A stretch of 64,000 bases of DNA from Oscillospiraceae bacterium (GCA_015064785.1 SVRM01000005.1:362-64361), one strand, 5' to 3'; counted from the first letter of the stretch, positions 2,890 through 27,730 are shown. A program made the numbers and translations. The notes: a model not told the origin generated them from the sequence alone.

Positions 2890-4308
2890 ATGCCGCCCAC
2901 ACATCTGCCCGATACCTATGCCCAATCAAAGGAAGCACTCGATGCCCTGTTTTCCTATCCCGACAATTTCGGGATTGTCCGGCGTGAGCTGACCGTCGGC
3001 GGCCGGCCTGCCGTTCTGTACTATGCCGAGGCGCTGTGCGATACCGCTGTGACCGAACGTGTTCTCGCCTTCTGCAAGGACAGCACCGACACCGCGCCCA
3101 AAGAAACCGCCGAAGCCTTCTGCGCCCAATCCATTTCCTATGCCGAAACGGAGATTTCCGATGACCCGTGTATCCTTCATGCCGGATGCATGACCGGATG
3201 TCTGCTGCTTCTGCATTCCGCCTATCCGTCTCGCGGGCTTCTGATCAAAGCAAGAAACATCCCCTCCCGCAGTCTCGAGGAGCCGGAACACGACAAGGTT
3301 CTGCGCGGTGCCCATGTCGGCTTTGTCGAGGTTCTGCCGCGCAACTGTGCCATGATCCGACGCCAGCTGCCGACACCGTCGCTTGTTATGAAGAATATTC
3401 CCGTCGGATCCGCATCCCGGACCAATGTTGTGCTGTGTTATCTGCGCGGACGAGCAGATGAAGCGTATCTCTCGTATCTGGAAAAAAAGCTGTCGGAAAT
3501 CCATACCGACAATCTGTGCATGGGAACGCAGAGTCTGGCAGAATGCCTTGTCAAACGGCGCGTCTGGAATCCGTTTCCGCGCTTCCGTTACACCGAACGT
3601 CCCGATGCCGCCGCCGCGTCGCTGTGCGAGGGCAGTATCCTTGTTCTGGTCGACGGCGCACCGCAGGCCATGATTCTGCCGGTCTCGGTCTTTTCCTTTT
3701 TGCAGGAAACCAACGATTTTTATCTGGCACCCCTTACCGCCACGTATCTGCGGATCGTGCGCCTGCTCAGTTACCTGCTCTCGCTGTATCTGACACCGCT
3801 GTGGTATGCCATTGTCACAGATACACCGCCGCTGCCGGGCTGGCTGTCGTTCCTGTCACAGACAGAGGAGGCGCGCGTCCCCATCCTCGTTCAGTTTCTG
3901 CTGATCGAGGTCGCCGTCGATATGCTGAAGCTCGCTTCCATGAACACACCGAATGCACTGTCCAATTCCCTCTCCGTCATCGGCGGTCTGATTCTCGGCG
4001 AGTTTGCAATCGAGGTCGGATGGTTCATGCCCGAAACCATTCTGTATATGGCAATCGTCTCCATCACACATTTCACCCAGCACAATTATGAGCTGGGCTA
4101 CGCCTTCAAATACGTCCGCATCGCCATGCTCTGTCTGACTGCCCTCTGCGGCTGGTGGGGCATTCTGCTCGGAACCGCTCTGCTGGTCATTCTGCTGATC
4201 ACCGCACCGACACCGGAGGACAAACAGCGGTATTTCTATCCGCTCATTCCCTTCGACGGTCCGGCTCTGGCATCGCTGTTCATCCGCCGCAGAAAGGAGC
4301 TGCCATAG
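2890..4308 (+). CDS. Spore germination protein, GerA family (GerxA/SpoVAF-like A subunit)
   Basis: 472 aa. Soluble N-terminal domain followed by a polytopic C-terminus. GerA-family stretches are present (LVLVDGAPQAMILPVSVFSFLQETNDFYLAPLTATYLRIVRLL). RBS GAAAGGAA precedes the ATG. Confidence 0.85.
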   Translation: MPPTHLPDTYAQSKEALDALFSYPDNFGIVRRELTVGGRPAVLYYAEALCDTAVTERVLAFCKDSTDTAPKETAEAFCAQSISYAETEISDDPCILHAGCMTGCLLLLHSAYPSRGLLIKARNIPSRSLEEPEHDKVLRGAHVGFVEVLPRNCAMIRRQLPTPSLVMKNIPVGSASRTNVVLCYLRGRADEAYLSYLEKKLSEIHTDNLCMGTQSLAECLVKRRVWNPFPRFRYTERPDAAAASLCEGSILVLVDGAPQAMILPVSVFSFLQETNDFYLAPLTATYLRIVRLLSYLLSLYLTPLWYAIVTDTPPLPGWLSFLSQTEEARVPILVQFLLIEVAVDMLKLASMNTPNALSNSLSVIGGLILGEFAIEVGWFMPETILYMAIVSITHFTQHNYELGYAFKYVRIAMLCLTALCGWWGILLGTALLVILLITAPTPEDKQRYFYPLIPFDGPALASLFIRRRKELP

Positions 4309-9212: not shown

Positions 9213-9458
9213 TCAGCCCTCCAAAACCTCATACATGGAGGACGCTTCCGCTTTGCCGACATGCTCCTTGACATCGACCACACGCACGCGCAGGGTTTTC
9301 TCACCGAAGGTGATTTCCAGAACATCCCCTTCCTTGACATCATAGGATGCTTTGGCACGCCGTCCGTTGACGGTGACATGGTCTGCGTCGCAGGCATCGT
9401 TTGCGACCGTTCTGCGCTTGATGATGCGCGACACCTTCAGATATTTATCGAGTCTCAT
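9213..9458 (-). CDS. yabO: S4-domain RNA-binding protein (YabO/Hsp15-like)
   Basis: The S4 signature (MRLDKYLKVSRIIKRRTVANDA...VTVNGRRAKASYDVKEGDVLEI) is present. The ATG at 9458 has RBS GAAAGGAG. The track start at 9464 is a TTG extension. Confidence 0.8.
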   Translation of the reverse strand: MRLDKYLKVSRIIKRRTVANDACDADHVTVNGRRAKASYDVKEGDVLEITFGEKTLRVRVVDVKEHVGKAEASSMYEVLEG

Positions 9459-9569
9459 GGACAAACTCCTTTCCTGAATACATCGAACCGGGTTCTGTCA
9501 GACACCCGCAGATACAAATACGACCGCACCCGGGGGTCATTGCACAGGTGCGGTCTGCATGTATACCAA

Positions 9570-9845
9570 TTACTTATTGACGGTTTCCTTGAGTGCCTTG
9601 CCTGCCGTGAAAGCCGGATGCTTGGAAGCGGGGATTTCAATGGATTCCTTGGTAGCGGGGTTTCTGCCGATCCGTGCTGCACGCTGCTTGGTTTCAAATG
9701 TACCAAAACCGACGAGCTGTACCTTTTCACCGTTTGCGAGTGCATCTTCAATGGTGGAGAGGAATGCGTTGACAACACCTTCTGCTTCCTTCTTCTTCAG
9801 ACCGGTCTTCTGTGCAACGGCATCAATAACCTGAGACTTGTTCAT
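9570..9845 (-). CDS. hup: DNA-binding protein HU
   Basis: Internal ATG (9845) of track ORF 9570-10067. The 91-aa product reads [91 protein letters not shown], a canonical HU. Confidence 0.93.
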
Positions 9846-9954
9846 AACGTATTCTTTACCTTTCTGTGTATAAATGATAAGATTCCTTTGTCCGGATACC
9901 AAAATCGATGCCCCTTGACGGGCAGTTTTTCCGGAACATAAAATTGCATGATAT

Positions 9955-9983
9955 AGTATACCATTTCCGCTTGATTTTATCAA
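9955..9983 (-). promoter_or_regulatory. Candidate sigma-A promoter of hup
   Basis: On the minus strand: TTGATA, a 17-nt spacer, then TATACT preceded by an extended TG (TGGTATACT). Confidence 0.5.
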
Positions 9984-10116
9984 GGGTTTTCGCAAAATTT
10001 TCCCGAAAATTTTCAACTTTTTCGGAAATGAAGCACTTCCGGCAGGGTTCTTGTGCACGGATCTCATATTTTGTTCTATGAACAGACGGTGCGGGCAGCG
10101 GTTCTGCCGCCCTTCC

Positions 10117-18780: not shown

Positions 18781-19476
18781 TTATACTCCGCCGAACCGGC
18801 GTTTTCTTGCGTAAAATGCCTCCACTGCGGCATCTACGGCAGCGTCGTCCATATCCGGCCACAGCGTATCGCAGAAATAGAATTCCGCATAAGCCGCCTG
18901 CCAGAGCAGGAAATTCGAGAGCCGCATCTCCGAACCCGTGCGGACAATGAGATCCGGCGGCGGGCAGTGTGCGGTATAGAGATTCGCGGTGATGTCATCC
19001 TCGGTGATCTCGGTTTTGCCCTGCGCAATCAGCGTATTGACCGCATGAACAATCTCATCGCGTCCGCCGTAATTGATGGCAATGTTGAGCGTCAGCGGAT
19101 GATGCGCGGTGTCACGCTCCAGCGCTTCCATGCGCGCACGGATCTCCGGCGGAAAAATCGACTTGTCACCGAGAAACACGGTATGGATATTGTATTCCTC
19201 TGCCTGTTTCTGCGCGCGTCCGAGAAACTCCGCAAAGATCGTCATAATCGCCTGCACCTCATGCTGCGGACGGCGCCAGTTCTCGGTGGAAAAAGCGTAA
19301 ACCGTCACAACACGGATGCCAATGTCACCGCAGTGGCGCACCACCCGTTCAAAGGTTTTGGCGCCGACGGAATGACCGTATTCCCGCGGCATTCCGCGCT
19401 TTTTTGCCCAGCGGCCGTTTCCGTCCATGATAAACGCAATGTGCCGCAGCCGTTCGTCCACTTGTATGTTAGCCAT
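18781..19476 (-). CDS. uppS: Isoprenyl transferase (undecaprenyl diphosphate synthase)
   Basis: Motifs HIAFIMDGNGRWA and RTGSEMRLSNFLLWQAAYAEF. The ATG at 19476 has RBS GGAGA. The track start at 19488 is a TTG extension. Confidence 0.93.
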   Translation of the reverse strand: MANIQVDERLRHIAFIMDGNGRWAKKRGMPREYGHSVGAKTFERVVRHCGDIGIRVVTVYAFSTENWRRPQHEVQAIMTIFAEFLGRAQKQAEEYNIHTVFLGDKSIFPPEIRARMEALERDTAHHPLTLNIAINYGGRDEIVHAVNTLIAQGKTEITEDDITANLYTAHCPPPDLIVRTGSEMRLSNFLLWQAAYAEFYFCDTLWPDMDDAAVDAAVEAFYARKRRFGGV

Positions 19477-19578
19477 GAGAATCTCCAATGTTTACAGTTC
19501 GTTTCCAGTTCGTTAAAAATTTCTCCCGACAGAGAAACAAGGATGACACGCCGCCATCCCTGTTTTCGGGTCGAATTA

Positions 19579-20133
19579 TCAGATTTCCATGATTTCCTTG
19601 GTCTTGGCTTCCGTGACCTTGTCAAGCTGCTTGACGTACTTGTCGGTCAGATCCTGGACTTCCTTTTCGGAGGCCTTCTGTTCGTCCTCGGTCATCGTGC
19701 CGGCCTTCTTCAGCTCCTTGCACTTGTCGTTTGCATCGCGGCGGATGTTGCGCAGTGCAACCTTGGCAGCTTCACCCTTCTTGGAGATGTCCTTTGCCAG
19801 TTCCTTTCTGCGTTCCTCAGTCAGCGGCGGGAAGGACAGGCGGAGCATAGAGCCGTCGTTCTGCGGATTGATGCCGAGATCGGATGCCTGAATTGCCTTT
19901 TCGATTGCCTTGAGCGTGGTCTTATCCCACGGGGTGATGGTGATGGTTCTTGCGTCCGGAACGGAGACCTGCGCAACAGCGGTGATCTGTGTGGGAGAGC
20001 CGTAGTAATCGACGGTGATCTTATCGAGGACACCGGGGTTTGCGCGTCCAGCACGGATTGACTTCAGTTCGTTTTCATATGCATCAATGCTCTTCTGCAT
20101 CTTTCTTTCATAATCTTTGACATCCAGTTTCAT
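19579..20133 (-). CDS. frr: Ribosome recycling factor
   Basis: 184 aa, canonical RRF (MKLDVKDYERKMQKSIDAYENELKSIRAGRANPGVLD...). RBS GGAGGTAT. Confidence 0.95.
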   Translation of the reverse strand: MKLDVKDYERKMQKSIDAYENELKSIRAGRANPGVLDKITVDYYGSPTQITAVAQVSVPDARTITITPWDKTTLKAIEKAIQASDLGINPQNDGSMLRLSFPPLTEERRKELAKDISKKGEAAKVALRNIRRDANDKCKELKKAGTMTEDEQKASEKEVQDLTDKYVKQLDKVTEAKTKEIMEI

Positions 20134-20278
20134 AACGGAAATACCTCCACAAATTAAAATTTCACATCCGGATGCCGACGTTCGTGCGCATCCGTGATTC
20201 TACCATATATTTTACTATGAAATCCTTGATTTGTAAACAGATTTCTGTAAATTTTTTCGGAATTTTCAAAAGATTTCA

Positions 20279-20312
20279 GAAAAAACACATCCCGCACACG
20301 CGGTACGGGATG
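20279..20312 (-). terminator. Intrinsic terminator of lipoprotein gene A
   Basis: On the minus strand a CATCCCG...CGGGATG hairpin is followed by TGTTTTTTC. It begins about 10 nt after the stop at 20322. It is duplicated at 23114-23148. Confidence 0.6.
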
Positions 20313-20321
20313 ATTTTCGGG

Positions 20322-22685
20322 TTATTGACGCTCTGCCAAACAGAGACTGACGCGGGACTGGATGATTTTCTGGGTTTCTTCCAGAGTGCGTACACCGCCG
20401 AGATAGGAATCGAGTTCTTCTGACAAAATCTCCATGACTGTCGTTTCCGCATAGGTCTGCATCGGTGTATTGAAAAACAGGGTTCGCAGCTGTTCTGTCA
20501 CATCCGGCACAAACGCATAACAGGTATAATACGGCTCTCCCCACACATTTCTGCCGCTCATGTATGTTTCCAGCTTCGGATCATCCGGCGCAAACGACCG
20601 TTCATAAGCGCGGCTCAGAATCACGGTTTCCGCACCGTTTGAGACAATGCTCGACGTATGATACGTATCCTCATTGACAAACAAATGCTGTGTTTTTCCA
20701 AGCTCCTGTTCCATCGCCTGCATCGTCGGCGGCAGACCGGTATTCTCCAGAGCCGCACTGTTCTGAATCAGATCGGACAGCAAAAACCGCAGATATTCCA
20801 TAGACCCGCGCTGAACGGGTGACGATGCGGAAATCATCAAATCCATATTCATCGAAGATAAATAACCGATCGATGTACCGTCAGACGGATAACCGCAGAA
20901 TGAAATGTCAATTCCGTCCAGTTCACGCAGTGCCGCTGCCATGGAAGCCATTCCGTCCAGCGGCAGGCACAGATACCGCAGCCGCCCCGATGTCAGATTT
21001 TCCGTAAGTTTTTCCGAGGTAATGCCGATACCGCCGATGCCCGACGGTGCAAAATAGCCCAGATCCGTATCATTGACCGAGGAAAGCGCTGCATAAAACG
21101 CAAGAAATTCACCGAACAGCGCACTGTCAAAACTGCATGTTCCGGCATCGTCGTCAATGAACGCTTCCACCGCACATTCCAACAGCATCCGCTCCTGATT
21201 GGGCTTCATCGAAAACAAAGCATCCCCCTCTGCAAGCGATTCTGCTTCCTCCAACAGCCGCTCCAATGTCAGCGCAGAACCGTCTGCATCCGGTGCGGCA
21301 GTCACCAGCGTATCGACCGAAATACGGAGGGGAATTGCATATAGTCCCGCATCCGCCGTTTCAAAAGCACTTTGCACACAGGGCAGAAGCTGATCTTTGA
21401 AATACGGCGACAAGTCAAGATATCCCTGTTTGCGGGAAATATCGCGGATTTCTTTCGCAAACGCATCACGGACAATCATGACATCCGGTGCGTTTCCGGA
21501 AAGTACATCCTCGCGGTAGGCCTGTATCTCCTCATCGCGCGTCAGATCAGTCTGATCTTCAGCGTAATTATGAACCGTTACATGGTATTCCGCATTCGTG
21601 CGGTTGAACAGTGCCGCACTGTTAGAAACGACATCCGCAAATCCACCGATCAGACCGACACGAATCTCCAGTTTTCCAGAATCCGACGGCGCTTTTTTCA
21701 GTATGGCAAGATCTCTTTTTTCAATAAACGGATCCGTCACCCATGCAAGGTATGTTTCCTCATCGAAAACATGAATCACATCCGTGTTTTCTGCTGATAA
21801 GAATGCATCGCCGTGCGCCATCAGAAGCACCGCTGTATCCGATGCCGCATCATATCCCCAGACACCGTCCCCGTCATGATAATACCGATCGTATCCGGGA
21901 CCGTATAAAATCGAATGGGACCGATCAATTCCCGACACCGCCGATAACGAAGCGTCATGAACCAGCTTCCCCCGTTCGGTGTCATAGACATGGTGTATCC
22001 CGCCCTGCGTCGCAAAATCAAACAATGTCACAACGACAGGGGAACCGGGCACCGCATGAAACCGCTGTACCCATCCGCCGATGGAATCGGCTGCCAGAAC
22101 CGTCAGATCGGAATCCAGATGATAAAACCATCCGCCGACCTGTACCGCAAAGCTGCCATCCTCCAATACCTGCACCGCACAGTCGATATTATCCGCGTTT
22201 TCGAGGCTGACCTCCGATTGGATCGTTCCGGTTTCATCCGACAAACGCACAACGGTCATCCCATCCTCCAAACTTGGCGAAAACAGCAGAAACGAACCGT
22301 TCGGCAGCAAATAAGACAGCGATGCCTGTACCGGAGCCGGATGAACCACCGTTTTGATATGCGCACCTGTGCGGTCATATATCCATGTTTCATCCCGCTT
22401 CGTTTCGGGATTGCTGTACTGAAAATGAATCTCATCTCCGAACACATGAACATACGGATGCAGATATGCAGTATCCATCATCAGATAATGATCCGCAGGT
22501 ATCGAGAGAAAAGAAAGCTCAAACCTGTTTTCGGAGCAGTAATACCGTTCTGCACCGGCGGTGTCCACCAATACCGCACGATCAGACGACAAGGCATCCG
22601 TATCATGCGTCAAATCATTCTCTCCGTGTGTACAGCCGTTCAAAAACAGAATCACAAGCACAAGTACAAAAAGATATTTCCTCAT
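20322..22685 (-). CDS. Large lipoprotein A: divergent beta-rich N-terminal half plus SBP-like C-terminal half
   Basis: 787 aa. Signal peptide plus Cys (VLVILFLNGCTHG). The C-terminal half has patches reminiscent of solute-binding proteins (NAPDVMIV, LDLSPYFKDQLLPCV, LYAIPL, CGYPSDG). It is a paralog of the ORF at 23179-25677, with a shared C-terminus KIIQSRVSLCLAERQ. It has its own RBS (GAGGAAG), promoter and terminator. Confidence 0.8.
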   Translation of the reverse strand: MRKYLFVLVLVILFLNGCTHGENDLTHDTDALSSDRAVLVDTAGAERYYCSENRFELSFLSIPADHYLMMDTAYLHPYVHVFGDEIHFQYSNPETKRDETWIYDRTGAHIKTVVHPAPVQASLSYLLPNGSFLLFSPSLEDGMTVVRLSDETGTIQSEVSLENADNIDCAVQVLEDGSFAVQVGGWFYHLDSDLTVLAADSIGGWVQRFHAVPGSPVVVTLFDFATQGGIHHVYDTERGKLVHDASLSAVSGIDRSHSILYGPGYDRYYHDGDGVWGYDAASDTAVLLMAHGDAFLSAENTDVIHVFDEETYLAWVTDPFIEKRDLAILKKAPSDSGKLEIRVGLIGGFADVVSNSAALFNRTNAEYHVTVHNYAEDQTDLTRDEEIQAYREDVLSGNAPDVMIVRDAFAKEIRDISRKQGYLDLSPYFKDQLLPCVQSAFETADAGLYAIPLRISVDTLVTAAPDADGSALTLERLLEEAESLAEGDALFSMKPNQERMLLECAVEAFIDDDAGTCSFDSALFGEFLAFYAALSSVNDTDLGYFAPSGIGGIGITSEKLTENLTSGRLRYLCLPLDGMASMAAALRELDGIDISFCGYPSDGTSIGYLSSMNMDLMISASSPVQRGSMEYLRFLLSDLIQNSAALENTGLPPTMQAMEQELGKTQHLFVNEDTYHTSSIVSNGAETVILSRAYERSFAPDDPKLETYMSGRNVWGEPYYTCYAFVPDVTEQLRTLFFNTPMQTYAETTVMEILSEELDSYLGGVRTLEETQKIIQSRVSLCLAERQ

Positions 22686-22729
22686 TTTTTCTTCCTCAGT
22701 TAAGATATTATGCTGTTATTTCTGTTATC

Positions 22730-22758
22730 ATTATATCATATTACCATTTTCACGTCAA
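22730..22758 (-). promoter_or_regulatory. Candidate sigma-A promoter of lipoprotein gene A
   Basis: On the minus strand: TTGACG (22758-22753), a 17-nt spacer, then TATAAT (22735-22730). Confidence 0.6.
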
Positions 22759-22829
22759 CAAATGACAAGCCGCTTATTTTTTTCTCCTGTTTGCACAAAT
22801 CAAACATACCGATTTTGTGAAATGAGCAC

Positions 22830-22863
22830 AAAAAAACGGCACAGCTGTTACACTGTGCCGTTT
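22830..22863 (-). terminator. Duplicated copy of the tsf intrinsic terminator
   Basis: Identical to 25824-25857: a CGGCACAG...CTGTGCCG stem followed by a T run on the minus strand. Confidence 0.6.
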
Positions 22864-22877
22864 CTGTAATACAAGAA

Positions 22878-22970
22878 TTACTTGTTGTTGACCATCTTTT
22901 CGATTTCAGCAGCAAAGTCTTCTTCTCTCTTCTGCATCTTTCTTTCATAATCTTTGACATCCAGTTTCAT
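22878..22970 (-). pseudogene. Chimeric frr'-'tsf remnant (30 codons) marking a duplication junction
   Basis: MKLDVKDYERKMQK is the first 14 codons of frr, carrying the frr RBS and promoter copy. It is fused in frame to REEDFAAEIEKMVNNK*, the last 16 codons of tsf. The junction lies in the 10-nt sequence CTCTTCTGCA (22927-22936), which is present in both parents (20090-20099 and 25921-25930). Confidence 0.8.
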
Positions 22971-23152
22971 AACGGAAATACCTCCACAAAATAAAATTTC
23001 ACATCCGGATACCGCAATCGTCCGTGTCCGGGATTCTACTATATTTTTTACTATGAAATCCTTGATTTGTAAACAGATTTCTGTAAATTTTTTGGGAATT
23101 TTCAAAAGAATCCGAAAAAACACATCCCGCACACGCGGTACGGGATGATTTT
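22927..23152. repeat. Duplicate of the frr 5' end, frr promoter/leader and lipoprotein terminator (original at 20090-20316)
   Basis: By-eye alignment shows mostly identical sequence. Differences cluster in the leader hairpin (20169-20194 vs 23004-23033), with a few substitutions elsewhere. Confidence 0.85.
23114..23148 (-). terminator. Intrinsic terminator of lipoprotein gene B
   Basis: Same CATCCCG...CGGGATG hairpin plus T run as at 20279-20312. Confidence 0.6.
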
Positions 23153-23178
23153 TGTGTGGTTGGTGGGGTCTGCATACT

Positions 23179-25677
23179 TTACTGTCTCTCTGCAAGATAG
23201 ATACTGACGCGGGACTGGATGATTTTTGTGACCTCGGTAAGCGACTTCACGCCATTCTGCCAATAGGACAGCTCCTCGGTAACAATCGCTTCCACAGTAT
23301 CGTCGCTGCCCGCTGACATATGGCAGTGATCGAGGAAGTACAGGAATGCATCGATATCCGCCTGCGGCAGTGCAACGCAGTATCCGGTCGGATCGCCGTT
23401 TTCGTCAAGCTCAAATGTCAGCGGCTCATCGGAAATGATCTCTGCCGACAGCGGTACAATCGGCGGGGTCGTGTCAAACGAAAGCGATGTCTCCCGCATC
23501 GGTGCGGCGGAGTTTCCGATATTGTGATATCGGTCTGCCGAATACGAATAATACCGGTTCTTTTCAAACAGCAGCCGGATGGCGTCCCGTGTGACAGGCA
23601 GATTCTGATGGGTATCCTCGGTCTGCCGCTCTGCATCCAGCAAAAATTGCAGAAATGCGATACTGCCCTCCGGCGCATCCGTATCGGCAAGCACTGCCGT
23701 ATAACCGAGAAGATTGACATACGCACCGCCGCCGTGATCCGACGGATAGCCGCACCAGACAAAATCCGTATCGCCGTACAGATGCCGCGCCATCATAACC
23801 TGCTCCGGCGAGTTTATCCACATATTCAAATAGGTCAGTCCGCCCTCACGCAGCCGTGCGGGAAGCGTCGGATTCGTATATCCACCGGTTCCGTCGGAAT
23901 GGGTTGTCAGATAACCGACGGTCTGATCGAGATAGGTTTCCGAAAGCTCGTCCAACAGCTCCATGACGGAACGGAATTTGTCACTGTCGTAGTCCGCCAT
24001 CCCTGCCACTGGGTCAAAGAAGTCCATGATGCCGTTGGCATACAGATACTGCTCTGCGCGCGGGTCGGAATACAGCACTTCCTTTCCGTCAAGAGACCTG
24101 ACACTGTCGATGAAGACATCCCATGTCAGAAAGTCCTCTGTTACCTCCGGCAGACAGAGAAACGTATAAATCTGCATATTCATCGGCACAGAATACAGCG
24201 CATCCCCCCATCTGACCGCATCCGTGACACAGCCGAGCATCTGATCGCCGATATACGGTGTCAGATCGAGAAAGGCATTTTTGTCATAATAGTCATCCAG
24301 CGTCACACGCGGGTCGATCATCAGCACATCCGGACGCGCTTGGTTCACCATACGGTCGGCAAGCAGCGCCTCTCGCTCCTGCTGTCCCATATTGACTACA
24401 TCAACATAATTGAGGTTGATCTCGTATTCCTCACTCTCACGGTTGAACGCAAGCACGGCGTCTCTGACCCAGTCGTTCACACCGTAATAGTCAAAGTCGA
24501 TGACCTGCTTGGGGTTTTCGTCGGGAACCATTTCGGTATGGATATAGTACAGTTTGGTATCGGTATAACGGTAATTTTCAATCCTTGATTTCGTGATATA
24601 AAAACTATGTTCATCTATCACCCATAAATTCCGATAATATAAATCTGCCGTTATGCCGCACTCCATCCAATCTGCCACTTTGGACGGCGGAAGATTATCC
24701 CGATACACGTACATACCAAGCATATCATACAAATAGAGATTTCCCTGTGTATCGGCAATCAGATTCATATGATCCTTGTCATCGGGCACACGGAACTTTT
24801 TATCTTCATAAATTCCGGTCTTCATATTCAGGATCGAACATTCCCCGACACTCCCGACAGGAAGCCATTTCATGTTACCGATATAGTCCATGAAAGATAA
24901 ATGCTTATTTCGATTGGTTAACTTCTGATATACTACCCGTCCGGCTTCCAGTGTCTGTGTTTCCCTGTGAAACAATACACTGAAAAAGCATGTTGATTCA
25001 CCACGATGCAGCAGAACAACATCTCCATCTTCGATTTCGCTTATCTTGAAATCACCGTGTGTCCAAAATTCAGGATAAACCTCGTCAAGACAGATTTCGG
25101 CACGAGGAGTACCGTCAGGCTCCGATATACCGAAATAGTACAGTGTATCTCCATCTTTTCGCTCACACCAGATCAGCGCAAAACATCCGTCAGACAGTAT
25201 ATACGCATATTCCGGCAATGCACCGCGAACCGACGGCACAGGAAGCTCCTCCATTCTCACACCATCTGCGTATGAATACAAAGATCTCTTATAACCGTTC
25301 TCCGTTTTCTGCTGCCCGTAAATAAATAATTTTCCATCTTTGACATATGTATTTGTGTAGTTTAATTCATAATCGCCGGAATACAATCCGGCAATCATTA
25401 CGATATCATCGGGCAAATCAGTTGTGATATCCACTACGGTATGCTTCAGTGTATATGGAACAAAGGATGGCACGGTTTCTGTGCTTTCCTCCGTCGCTTC
25501 CATTTCCGACAATTCTGTCATATCCGATGCATCTACCGTGTCAGCGGAATATTCTGTGACCGTTTGCTGTGTTATCACCGGTATCTTTGGCTGTTCTCCG
25601 GAACAGGAAGAAAGCAGCATACCGCACAGAATCAGCAAAATTACAACCAATCTTTCATAAACAGCATGACGCTTCAT
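23179..25677 (-). CDS. Large lipoprotein B: divergent beta-rich N-terminal half plus SBP-like C-terminal half
   Basis: The ATG at 25677 has a strong RBS (AGGAGGGAAGAGGG); the track start is at 25698. The 832-aa product has a signal peptide and lipobox (LILCGMLLSSCSG). The C-terminal half is alignable to lipoprotein A (ARPDVLMI, LDLTPYIGDQMLGCV, LYSVPM, CGYPSDHG, KIIQSRVSIYLAERQ). The N-terminal half aligns poorly. Confidence 0.8.
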   Translation of the reverse strand: MKRHAVYERLVVILLILCGMLLSSCSGEQPKIPVITQQTVTEYSADTVDASDMTELSEMEATEESTETVPSFVPYTLKHTVVDITTDLPDDIVMIAGLYSGDYELNYTNTYVKDGKLFIYGQQKTENGYKRSLYSYADGVRMEELPVPSVRGALPEYAYILSDGCFALIWCERKDGDTLYYFGISEPDGTPRAEICLDEVYPEFWTHGDFKISEIEDGDVVLLHRGESTCFFSVLFHRETQTLEAGRVVYQKLTNRNKHLSFMDYIGNMKWLPVGSVGECSILNMKTGIYEDKKFRVPDDKDHMNLIADTQGNLYLYDMLGMYVYRDNLPPSKVADWMECGITADLYYRNLWVIDEHSFYITKSRIENYRYTDTKLYYIHTEMVPDENPKQVIDFDYYGVNDWVRDAVLAFNRESEEYEINLNYVDVVNMGQQEREALLADRMVNQARPDVLMIDPRVTLDDYYDKNAFLDLTPYIGDQMLGCVTDAVRWGDALYSVPMNMQIYTFLCLPEVTEDFLTWDVFIDSVRSLDGKEVLYSDPRAEQYLYANGIMDFFDPVAGMADYDSDKFRSVMELLDELSETYLDQTVGYLTTHSDGTGGYTNPTLPARLREGGLTYLNMWINSPEQVMMARHLYGDTDFVWCGYPSDHGGGAYVNLLGYTAVLADTDAPEGSIAFLQFLLDAERQTEDTHQNLPVTRDAIRLLFEKNRYYSYSADRYHNIGNSAAPMRETSLSFDTTPPIVPLSAEIISDEPLTFELDENGDPTGYCVALPQADIDAFLYFLDHCHMSAGSDDTVEAIVTEELSYWQNGVKSLTEVTKIIQSRVSIYLAERQ

Positions 25678-25723
25678 CCCTCTTCCCTCCTGTTGCAAAT
25701 TATCTGTGGATTATCCTGTTACC

Positions 25724-25752
25724 ATTATATCATAATTCCGTCATCACGTCAA
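25724..25752 (-). promoter_or_regulatory. Candidate sigma-A promoter of lipoprotein gene B
   Basis: On the minus strand: TTGACG (25752-25747), a 17-nt spacer, then TATAAT (25729-25724). Confidence 0.6.
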
Positions 25753-25823
25753 CAAATGACAAGCCGCTTATTTTTTTCTTCTGTTTGCACAAATCAAACA
25801 TACCGATTTTGTGAAATGAGCAC

Positions 25824-25857
25824 AAAAAAACGGCACAGCTGTTACACTGTGCCGTTT
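25824..25857 (-). terminator. Intrinsic terminator of tsf
   Basis: On the minus strand a CGGCACAG...CTGTGCCG hairpin is flanked by AAA/TTT and followed by a run of seven T. It lies 15 nt after the tsf stop. Confidence 0.7.
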
Positions 25858-25871
25858 CTGTAATACAAGAA

Positions 25872-26804
25872 TTACTTGTTGTTGACCATCTTTTCGATTT
25901 CAGCAGCAAAGTCTTCTTCTCTCTTCTGCAGGCCTTCGCCCTTTTCATAGCGGAAGAAGTTTGCAACCTTGATGGAGCCGCCGAATGCCTTGCCGGAATC
26001 TGCGAGATACTTTGCAACGGATTCCTTGTTTTCAGCCTTGACATATTCCTGTTCGAGCAGGCAGTTTGCTTCGTAGAACTTGCCGAGACGACCGACAACG
26101 ATCTTTTCGAGAACCTGCTGCGGCTTCTTTGCGTTTGCAGGATCGTTTGCAAGCTGTGCGAGCAGGACAGACTTTTCTTCTTCGATAACGGAAGCGGGAA
26201 CGTCCTCACGTGCAATGTACGGAACTGCAGCCTGTGCAGCAACGTGCAGAGCGATGTTCTTCTTGACTTCTGCGTAGCCTTCGTTTGCAGCTGCAGCTTC
26301 GTCAGATTCGAACTTGACAATGACACCGATGGAGCCTTTGCCGTGGATATAGGAAACGAGGTCGCCTTCGATGATATCGAAGCGGCGGATGGACATATTT
26401 TCACCGATGGTGAAGATCATCTGCTTGAGCTGTGCTTCAACATTGGTTTCACCTTCATAGGTGCAAGCGAGAAGTGCTGCAACGTCAGCGGGCTTTTCGG
26501 TGATGATGATGTGGAGCAGCTGTGCAACGAATGCCTTGAAGGTATCGTTCTTTGCAACGAAGTCGGTTTCGGAGTTGACTTCGATGATGGCACCGACACC
26601 GTTTTCGATTGCGATGTCAACCAGACCTTCAGCGGCGATTCTGTCTGCCTTCTTTGCAGCGACAGCAATGCCTCTTTCACGAAGGATCTTGATTGCGTCG
26701 TCCATGTTGCCGTTTGCTTCTACGAGTGCGTTCTTGCACTCCATCATGCCGCAGCCTGTCTTCTTGCGAAGCTCAGCTACGTCCTTTGCAGAAATGTTAG
26801 CCAT
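25872..26804 (-). CDS. tsf: Translation elongation factor Ts
   Basis: 310 aa. The N-terminal UBA-like motif (AKDVAELRKKTGCGMMECKNALVEANGNMDDAIKILRERG) is canonical EF-Ts. Confidence 0.96.
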   Translation of the reverse strand: MANISAKDVAELRKKTGCGMMECKNALVEANGNMDDAIKILRERGIAVAAKKADRIAAEGLVDIAIENGVGAIIEVNSETDFVAKNDTFKAFVAQLLHIIITEKPADVAALLACTYEGETNVEAQLKQMIFTIGENMSIRRFDIIEGDLVSYIHGKGSIGVIVKFESDEAAAANEGYAEVKKNIALHVAAQAAVPYIAREDVPASVIEEEKSVLLAQLANDPANAKKPQQVLEKIVVGRLGKFYEANCLLEQEYVKAENKESVAKYLADSGKAFGGSIKVANFFRYEKGEGLQKREEDFAAEIEKMVNNK

Positions 26805-26839
26805 GTTTTTATCCTCCTGAATTTTGATGAAATCGAAAA

Positions 26840-27571
26840 TTATTCAGCTGCTTCTTCAGCTGCTTCAGCAGCTTCGGGAGCGTTCTGTTCGCCCTGCTTG
26901 CCTTCGACAACAGCGTCAGCGAGAACGGAAGCGATCAGCTTGATTGCGCGGATAGCGTCGTCGTTGCCGGGGATGATGTAGTCAGCATCGTCGGGATCAC
27001 AGTTGGTATCAACGATTGCAACAACCGGAATACCGAGCTTCTTTGCTTCGAGAACTGCGTTCTTTTCCTTCTTGGGGTCAACAATGAAGACTGCGGAGGG
27101 CAGACCGGGCATGGTCTTGATACCGCCGTAGTTGCGTTCGAGGTCGCCCATTTCCTTGATGAGCTTAGCAACTTCCTTCTTGGGGAGCAGGTCGAAGGTA
27201 CCGTCTTCCTTCATCTTTTCGAGGTTGGTAAGTCTTGCGATGGACTTCTTGATGGTCTTGTAGTTGGTCAGCATACCGCCGGGCCATCTTTCGTTGACAT
27301 AGTACATGCCGCAGCGTTCTGCTTCTTCCTTGATTGCGTCAGCAGCCTGCTTCTTGGTACCGACAAACAGAACGGTGCCGTTTTCCGCAGCGGTTTCGCG
27401 GACAAACATGTATGCTTCTTCAAACTTCTTAACGGTCTTCTGCAGGTCGATGATGTAGATACCGTTTCTTTCGGTGAAGATGTACTCAGCCATCTTCGGG
27501 TTCCATCTTCTGGTGTGGTGACCGAAATGGACACCAGCTTCAAGCAGCTGCTTAATGGTAATAACTGACAT
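26840..27571 (-). CDS. rpsB: 30S ribosomal protein S2
   Basis: [46 protein letters not shown]... The ATG at 27571 has RBS AGGAGGA. The track start at 27577 is a TTG extension. Confidence 0.96.
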
Positions 27572-27730
27572 TTTCAATGTCCTCCTGTATGGTTTTTTCC
27601 ACCACAGAGTCCCTCTCGTCCCGCTGACACGCAGCTTGCGTGAACCACGGAGGTACGGAATGCGGATCTGTGTGTGTATTTATTTTACCGCGGCAGAATG
27701 GCTCCGCGATACCGTTATATTTTACCACAT

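Follow-up and report, generated by a model that had tools for sequence, protein, structure and literature searches.

The tsf–frr locus

The window (the whole stretch of Oscillospiraceae DNA analysed here, 64,000 nt) carries intact genes for elongation factor EF-Ts (tsf) and ribosome recycling factor (frr), separated by two large lipoprotein genes with a 30-codon chimeric open reading frame between them, referred to below as the scar ORF. Genes throughout the region lie on the minus strand, in the reading order rpsB, tsf, lipoB, scar ORF, lipoA, frr, uppS, cdsA, dxr.

26840–27577, minus strand: rpsB
25872–26804, minus strand: tsf (EF-Ts), intact; Pfam EF_TS, E = 1.8e-61
23179–25677, minus strand: lipoB, 832-residue lipoprotein, lipobox LSSC; modelled as an N-terminal β-rich domain plus a C-terminal MalE-like solute-binding fold
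22878–22970, minus strand: scar ORF, 30 codons; frr codons 1–14 in frame with tsf codons 295–310 and the stop
20322–22685, minus strand: lipoA, 787-residue lipoprotein, lipobox LNGC
19579–20133, minus strand: frr (ribosome recycling factor), intact; Pfam RRF, E = 1.3e-71

The lipoboxes LNGC and LSSC mark the lipoA and lipoB products as predicted surface lipoproteins. Each gene has its own near-consensus promoter and its own intrinsic terminator, making the two self-contained cassettes (hereafter A and B). The proteins share 28% identity over the C-terminal 450 residues, with no alignment between their N-terminal halves. Measured from join to join, the two units (2,994 and 2,837 nt) resemble each other only at their ends: the opening 215 nt are 96.7% identical and the closing 290 nt 84%, and no nucleotide similarity was detected across the intervening interior of ~2.4 kb.

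Domain assignments from sequence are marginal. The lipoB product exceeds the Pfam cutoff narrowly for SBP_bac_8 (28.5 bits against 27) and barely for SBP_bac_1, and lipoA gives a weak SBP_bac_1 match below threshold; searches of both lipoproteins against NCBIfam and PDB sequences returned no matches. In an AlphaFold model (mean pLDDT 75.9), for which 12 alleles were aligned, lipoB divides into a β-rich N-terminal domain (about residues 75–385) and an α/β C-terminal domain. The top PDB matches to this model (Foldseek) are MalE-like oligosaccharide-binding proteins, with CbpC (7x0o, E = 3.6e-13) in first place. As modelled, the C-terminal part of lipoB has the fold of a solute-binding protein. 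There are no permease or ATPase genes beside the cassettes, whose neighbours are tsf, frr, uppS, cdsA and dxr.

A chimeric ORF joined within a 10-nt microhomology

The scar ORF (22878–22970, minus strand) translates as MKLDVKDYERKMQKREEDFAAEIEKMVNNK followed by a stop codon. Of its 93 nt, the 5′ 44 are identical to frr and the 3′ 59 to tsf, so that the parental sequences overlap by exactly 10 nt.

22927–22936, minus strand: microhomology 10-mer at the join, coding strand TGCAGAAGAG
20090–20099, minus strand: the 10-mer in the frr parent, codons M12-Q-K-S15
25921–25930, minus strand: the 10-mer in the tsf parent, codons L293-Q-K-R296

Read on the plus strand, the 10-mer (CTCTTCTGCA) occurs in the 64-kb window at positions 20090, 22927 and 25921 only. 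The join is novel and head-to-tail, placing downstream sequence (frr codons 1–14) ahead of upstream sequence (tsf codons 295–310). The original prediction had described a 30-codon frr′–′tsf chimera at these coordinates, joined inside a 10-mer common to both parents at a point where both encode Q-K. The coordinates and translation are borne out, as are the position of the join and the shared dipeptide, which lies in the same frame in frr (M-Q-K-S) and in tsf (L-Q-K-R).

Ten shared bases are in themselves unremarkable: tsf and frr have four 10-mers and one 11-mer in common, and shuffled sequences typically share 9–10 nt. Shared 10-mers between these genes are thus expected by chance; what is non-random is that parentage switches exactly within one of them. 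The same 10-mer is present in both tsf and frr of a related species with no cassette at the site (L008). The frr′–′tsf chimera is genuine, the scar of a recombination at a microhomology of 10 bases.

Flanking repeats and expression signals

The join is the meeting point of two longer repeats, each with a native counterpart at the far side of the adjoining cassette.

22722–22936, minus strand: R1′, copy of the tsf 3′ end, tsf terminator and cassette promoter region, upstream of lipoA
25716–25930, minus strand: R1, native tsf 3′ end, tsf terminator and cassette promoter region, upstream of lipoB
22927–23162, minus strand: R2′, copy of the lipoprotein terminator and the frr promoter, leader, ribosome-binding site (RBS) and codons 1–14, downstream of lipoB
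20090–20327, minus strand: R2, native lipoA terminator and frr promoter, leader, RBS and frr 5′ end
23045–23073, minus strand: scar copy of the frr promoter, TTTACA, 17-nt spacer, TAAAAA; T-to-A at base 23045, the last position of the −10 hexamer
20209–20237, minus strand: native frr promoter, TTTACA, 17-nt spacer, TAAAAT; kept in all relatives examined
22830–22863, minus strand: copy of the tsf intrinsic terminator, 3′ of the scar ORF; native copy at 25824–25857
23123–23147, minus strand: lipoB intrinsic terminator; identical copy after lipoA at 20288–20312
25724–25752, minus strand: lipoB cassette promoter, TTGACG, 17-nt spacer, TG-extended TATAAT; lipoA copy at 22730–22758

Alignment of each flank with its parent, proposed as a check on the original prediction, supports it on both sides. 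On the tsf side, R1′ and R1 (22722–22936 against 25716–25930) agree over 215 nt at 97%, and by our reading of the alignment the ~150 nt adjoining the join are identical. On the frr side, 22927–23152 aligns with 20090–20317 over 228 nt at 93.4%, rising to 98% over the 88 nt closest to the join.

The scar was also predicted to retain a complete set of expression signals. Its RBS (GGAGG, 10 nt ahead of the ATG), open frame and terminator are indeed intact, the terminator copy folding at −26 kcal/mol (z-score −5.9), but the claim of a complete promoter fails, as the −10 hexamer is mutated from TAAAAT to TAAAAA. A consensus promoter scan calls the native frr promoter and leaves the scar copy uncalled. 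The altered base is T in 10 of 10 native frr-upstream sequences (that of the window and those of nine related loci), which read TAAAAT or TACAAT. The same scan scores the lipoB cassette promoter at 11 of 12 consensus positions, with the TG present.

Between the −10 hexamer and the RBS, the native frr 5′ leader contains a hairpin (20140–20200, minus strand), copied in the scar at 22977–23037. It is conserved in all eight sequences folded, with ten predicted pairs, two of them showing compensatory changes, and might serve to stabilise the 5′ end or have a regulatory role. Rfam contains no family matching it. An Rfam scan of 19000–27700 yielded one spurious match, to the Sarbecovirus 5′UTR (25770–25911, plus strand), far below threshold at 21 bits against a gathering score of 150 and attributable to chance.

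Occurrence of the scar and content of the gap in relatives

The exact scar peptide is present on six contigs, the longest 74 kb. Five of these (L001–L005) were read, and they come from five different metagenome samples (four JGI, one ENA). L001 runs from the lipoB 3′ end through the scar and lipoA to frr codon 44, and L005 from the lipoB 3′ end through the scar to the lipoA 5′ end; they are 100% and 99.9% identical to the window, respectively. The join sequence was found only in L001–L005, at 99.9–100% identity to the window, which places them in the same clone, and the 90%-identity cluster of the scar peptide has a single member. Two of the contigs, from other samples, have a different arrangement: L003 (1–2991) and L004 (1–2891) read lipoB 3′ end, scar, R1, lipoB 5′ end. 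Apart from distal SNPs of the B type, both match the window at 100%; a tandemly amplified B unit, a circle excised from the locus or an error in resolving the repeat could account for them.

Related loci were recovered around frr, tsf and lipoA/lipoB homologues from species-representative genomes and public assemblies, and 11 were examined. An exact-protein look-up of frr gave no match, and a scan of metagenome DNA with the conserved frr promoter word gave two loci, one of them informative (L090, an empty site). The tsf–frr gap is filled as follows.

L008 and L090: empty
L091 (about 97% nucleotide identity to the window): A only, between intact tsf and frr
L092 (87–91% nucleotide identity): A only, between intact tsf and frr
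L095: B only, between tsf and frr
L098: B only, ORF in two pieces
L007: B, then frr
L006: allele of a third type, 36% identical to B, followed by frr
L096: a lipoprotein, then a type 50% identical to B, then frr
L094: tsf, B2, a small Cys-rich ORF, B1, frr
L097: tsf, a 113-residue ORF, B

In the close clade (frr 90–97% identical), tsf and frr are direct neighbours with a variable gap between them; L011 and L018 were also among the loci compared for this adjacency, alongside window positions 19579–26804, L008 and L090. More distant relatives in the Oscillospiraceae and Lachnospiraceae usually have a gap of about 900 nt or more, which, as we read it, would fit the usual tsf–pyrH–frr order. The A-type alleles that stand alone are 97% (L091) and 86% (L092) identical to lipoA, and the B-type alleles of other strains at this locus are 47–86% identical to lipoB. 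Across the related loci, lipoprotein alleles are 27–86% identical and tsf and frr 90–100%. A- and B-type alleles are also present in lineages with 5–7% amino-acid difference in frr, and none of these lineages has the scar. The empty site of L090 fixes the cassette boundaries, having the same tsf terminator hairpin as the window with the frr promoter directly next to it. Judged by sequence comparison, the tsf–frr gap is a hypervariable site for lipoprotein cassettes, holding zero, one or two per strain, with allele types that differ widely. Outside L001–L005, no related locus examined has a duplicate frr 5′ end or tsf 3′ end, and the other two-cassette loci (L094 and L096) contain no frr′/′tsf remnant.

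Several alleles are mosaic. The first 40 residues of lipoB and of the B2 allele of L094 are identical (window 25558–25677 against L094 6781–6900), at an overall identity of 63%; the 5′ end of the lipoprotein gene appears to travel with the tsf flank and not with the cassette body. In the A-only locus L091, positions 3205–3290 (compared with window 20296–20373 and 23150–23226) contain a B-type patch of ~60 nt at the lipoA 3′ end, with a 22-nt insertion past the stop codon, which suggests past gene conversion from a B cassette.

Three loci have further peculiarities. Between its two B-type cassettes, L094 carries a small Cys-rich ORF with a signal-peptide-like N-terminus (9280–10000). L097 has a 113-residue ORF between tsf and the lipoprotein gene (1554–1895). 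The B-type lipoprotein of L098 (1332–3830) is divided into adjacent ORFs of 510 and 321 residues, and could be a frameshift pseudogene or reflect a sequencing error.

Allele-linked haplotypes on either side of the join

The repeat copies differ from one another along allelic lines. R2′, the frr-upstream copy at the scar, is 96.1% identical to the frr-upstream sequence of the B-type loci L094 and L095 and 93.3% identical to its own R2, and the native R2 is 99.4% identical to that of the A-type locus L091. By our count, 9 of the 12 differences between R2′ and R2 are common to the B-type haplotype, two are private to the scar copy and one is private to the native copy. The ~95 nt of R2′ closest to the join resemble the window/L091 type, unlike L094/L095, so R2′ is itself mosaic or partly converted.

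The other side of the join follows the A allele. At every site where R1′ and R1 differ, R1′ (the copy before lipoA) matches A-type L091. Once B and the scar are removed from the window, it differs from L091 at 94 of 3,564 columns, 30 of these in one 3′ patch; just one mismatch falls in the stretch that begins at the tsf 3′ end, crosses R1′ and reaches the start of lipoA. The A unit through frr is ~98% identical to L091, consistent with an anchor in frr. These allele-linked matches indicate that most of the divergence between the repeats was inherited as polymorphism between alleles and did not accumulate after a duplication, and suggest that at the scar a B-type flank meets an A-type one. The ~150 nt of tsf′ (3′ end and terminator) adjoining the join are invariant in all conspecific sequences.

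A proposed history of allele stacking

The gene order put forward originally, tsf–cassette–frr′::′tsf–cassette–frr, is correct, and the exact 10-nt overlap agrees with its single illegitimate join inside a microhomology. Its label of "duplication scar" holds in part: scar and join stand, but a tandem duplication of one cassette does not, given proteins that are 28% identical and units alike only over their first 215 and last 290 nt. Recent duplicates would have identical interiors. With cassettes so unlike, either two different alleles were joined, or one copy was replaced after a duplication.

The first of these is the reading that we favour, with moderate confidence: one microhomology-mediated illegitimate crossover, either resembling homology-facilitated illegitimate recombination (HFIR) or an unequal exchange with subsequent allele replacement, would have joined B-type and A-type versions of the locus. 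The starting alleles would be a tsf–B–frr chromosome and a tsf–A–frr molecule from a conspecific strain. The frr 5′ end downstream of the B cassette would have been joined, within TGCAGAAGAG, to the tsf 3′ end upstream of the A cassette, while at the other end ordinary homologous recombination, within frr or past it, would have completed the exchange; an unequal exchange in a transiently merodiploid cell would lead to the same product. That product, tsf–B–(frr′::′tsf)–A–frr, would leave both essential genes intact, with the chimeric ORF as a by-product. The direction of the event and the route by which the DNA entered we infer. Both parental alleles exist singly among the relatives, tsf–A–frr in L091 and L092 and tsf–B–frr in L095 and L098, as the survey for single-cassette alleles advocated in the original prediction had anticipated, although such alleles might in principle have arisen by deletion from an ancestor with two cassettes. 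Flank identity is 97% and 84–93%, against 28% for the cassette proteins. As the tsf 3′ end beside the join is invariant in the species, HFIR is inseparable here from duplication plus replacement.

Alternative histories and the fate of the scar

Duplication followed by replacement is possible, if rather unlikely. Here, microhomology-mediated unequal sister-chromatid exchange in a B-type strain, the step originally envisaged, would have given tsf–B–scar–B–frr, and the frr-proximal copy would later have been replaced by A through homologous recombination between R1′ and frr. The join and its microhomology are as in the crossover model, and frequent allele replacement at the locus is attested by the mosaic alleles and the B-type patch in L091. 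L003 (2,991 nt) and L004 (2,891 nt), which read B–scar–B with B-type distal SNPs, resemble the expected intermediate. Their lengths are, however, nearly exactly one B unit (2,994 nt) and they traverse the ~150-nt identical repeat, so they may be graph cycles or mis-resolved repeats; B–scar–B could also derive secondarily from B–scar–A by unequal crossover between R1 and R1′, and B–scar–B–frr is on no contig. This history moreover needs two events where one suffices.

It is improbable that the duplication is ancient, the copies having diverged to 28% identity while gene conversion kept their flanks alike, with the single-cassette alleles as later deletions. Direct repeats of 215 and about 230 nt would permit both conversion and deletion, the B-type patch at the lipoA 3′ end of L091 points to conversion between cassette types, and deletion of A by recombination between R2′ and R2 would leave a B-type frr-upstream haplotype, as in L095. 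Yet the scar was found only in contigs at 99.9–100% identity to the window, with an ORF 100% identical to its parents and no variant peptide in its cluster; a neutral 93-nt ORF would not remain parent-identical while the cassettes fell to 28%. Scar-free A and B lineages with frr 5–7% different, and the two-cassette loci without a remnant (L094, L096), count further against it. Restriction of a parent-identical scar to one clone makes an ancient duplication with homogenised flanks unlikely, and together with the allele-linked haplotypes leads us to reject ancient duplication with divergence.

Could the scar instead be a functional small gene, expressed as a 30-residue peptide or a short RNA and retained as such? 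Its EF-Ts C-terminal segment might, for instance, contact EF-Tu, or the copied frr leader might serve as a decoy. The intact RBS, open frame and strong terminator (−26 kcal/mol) would allow it, but we consider it very improbable: only the scar copy carries A in place of T at the end of the −10 hexamer, conservation is limited to one clone, and scar-free single- and two-cassette loci are the norm. With the scar in only one clone and its −10 mutated, nothing points to a maintained gene. The ORF has no changes and the upstream copy two private ones; the scar is most likely a recent, neutral by-product, already decaying and, we infer, without function, and its peptide is probably of no biological consequence.

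Least probable of all is an assembly chimera, in which tsf–B–frr and tsf–A–frr strains were merged into one contig: the window does come from a metagenome-style assembly and several short-read contigs end at or inside the repeats (L002, L086 and L087), but k-mers in normal assembler use exceed 10 nt, so that ten shared bases could not have seeded the join in a de Bruijn assembler, and the join recurs on six contigs, the five read coming from five samples, with L001 and L005 spanning the scar at 100% and 99.9% identity to the window, and we reject it.

Significance and comparison with known systems

On the favoured history of two stacked alleles, the locus offers a clean natural footprint of a microhomology-mediated illegitimate join, with both parental alleles recoverable from relatives. 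It is a useful case of gut commensals stacking variable surface-protein alleles with the flanking essential genes unharmed. More broadly, the tsf–frr gap emerges as a hypervariable lipoprotein locus in an uncultured clade of herbivore-gut Clostridia, with potential relevance to strain typing, interaction with phages or hosts, and glycan capture. A more speculative proposal, which we regard as doubtful, is that the gap is a dedicated site of recombination-driven lipoprotein variation, the conserved cassette ends serving as exchange handles. If so, the direct repeats at the scar would make each stacked allele deletable or amplifiable, and RecA could drive switching among B-only, A-only, B+A and B–B–A states within a population. 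L003 and L004, which read B–scar–B, and the patch of B-type conversion in A-only L091 hint at such switching.

HFIR is known from natural transformation in Acinetobacter baylyi, Streptococcus pneumoniae and Pseudomonas stutzeri, where joins form at 3–10 bp microhomologies adjoining a homologous anchor (summarised in PMC6382021). The scar is similar in having one novel join at a 10 bp microhomology, a long homologous stretch beside it as a possible anchor (the A unit, frr and downstream), and what would be a net gain of heterologous DNA (the 28%-identical cassette) from a close donor. It differs in that recipient DNA is undeleted, and what counts as "foreign" is another allele at this locus, giving an outcome that resembles a tandem duplication of the flanks. 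As a process of natural transformation, HFIR would moreover call for DNA uptake and RecA at the scar.

Pneumococcal transformation also produces merodiploids, which arise between long repeats (incomplete IS861 copies) and span 100–900 kb (Johnston et al. 2013, PMC3784515). The scar shares with their join points a head-to-tail order (frr 5′ to tsf 3′), unequal crossover as formal mechanism and direct repeats that are destabilising. Unlike pneumococcal merodiploids, it has a 10-nt join and a unit of ~3 kb, with different genes in the two units.

At the level of the locus, the closest parallels are with surface loci. Hypervariable loci of this kind lie between conserved housekeeping genes, as in pneumococcal cps (dexB–aliA), O-antigen and K loci. 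The tsf–frr gap has the same fixed position, conserved flanks (90–100%, against 27–86% for the inserts), mosaic alleles and empty sites, and its alleles would likewise be swapped via recombination in the flanks. In contrast to cps-type loci, which hold biosynthetic clusters, the tsf–frr site takes one lipoprotein gene per cassette, equipped with a promoter and terminator, and is bordered by genes for translation factors; the stacking of two alleles with a flank–flank chimera is unusual for loci of this class.

The lipoB product itself is akin to the MalE-like (cluster B) oligosaccharide-binding proteins of ABC transporters in its C-terminal ~440 residues and its lipoprotein signal peptide, but departs from them in an extra β-rich N-terminal domain of ~310 residues, the lack of an adjacent permease or ATPase, and extreme allelic divergence. 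Set against these systems, the scar is a new instance of a known process, and the hypervariable tsf–frr lipoprotein site is the more interesting by-product.
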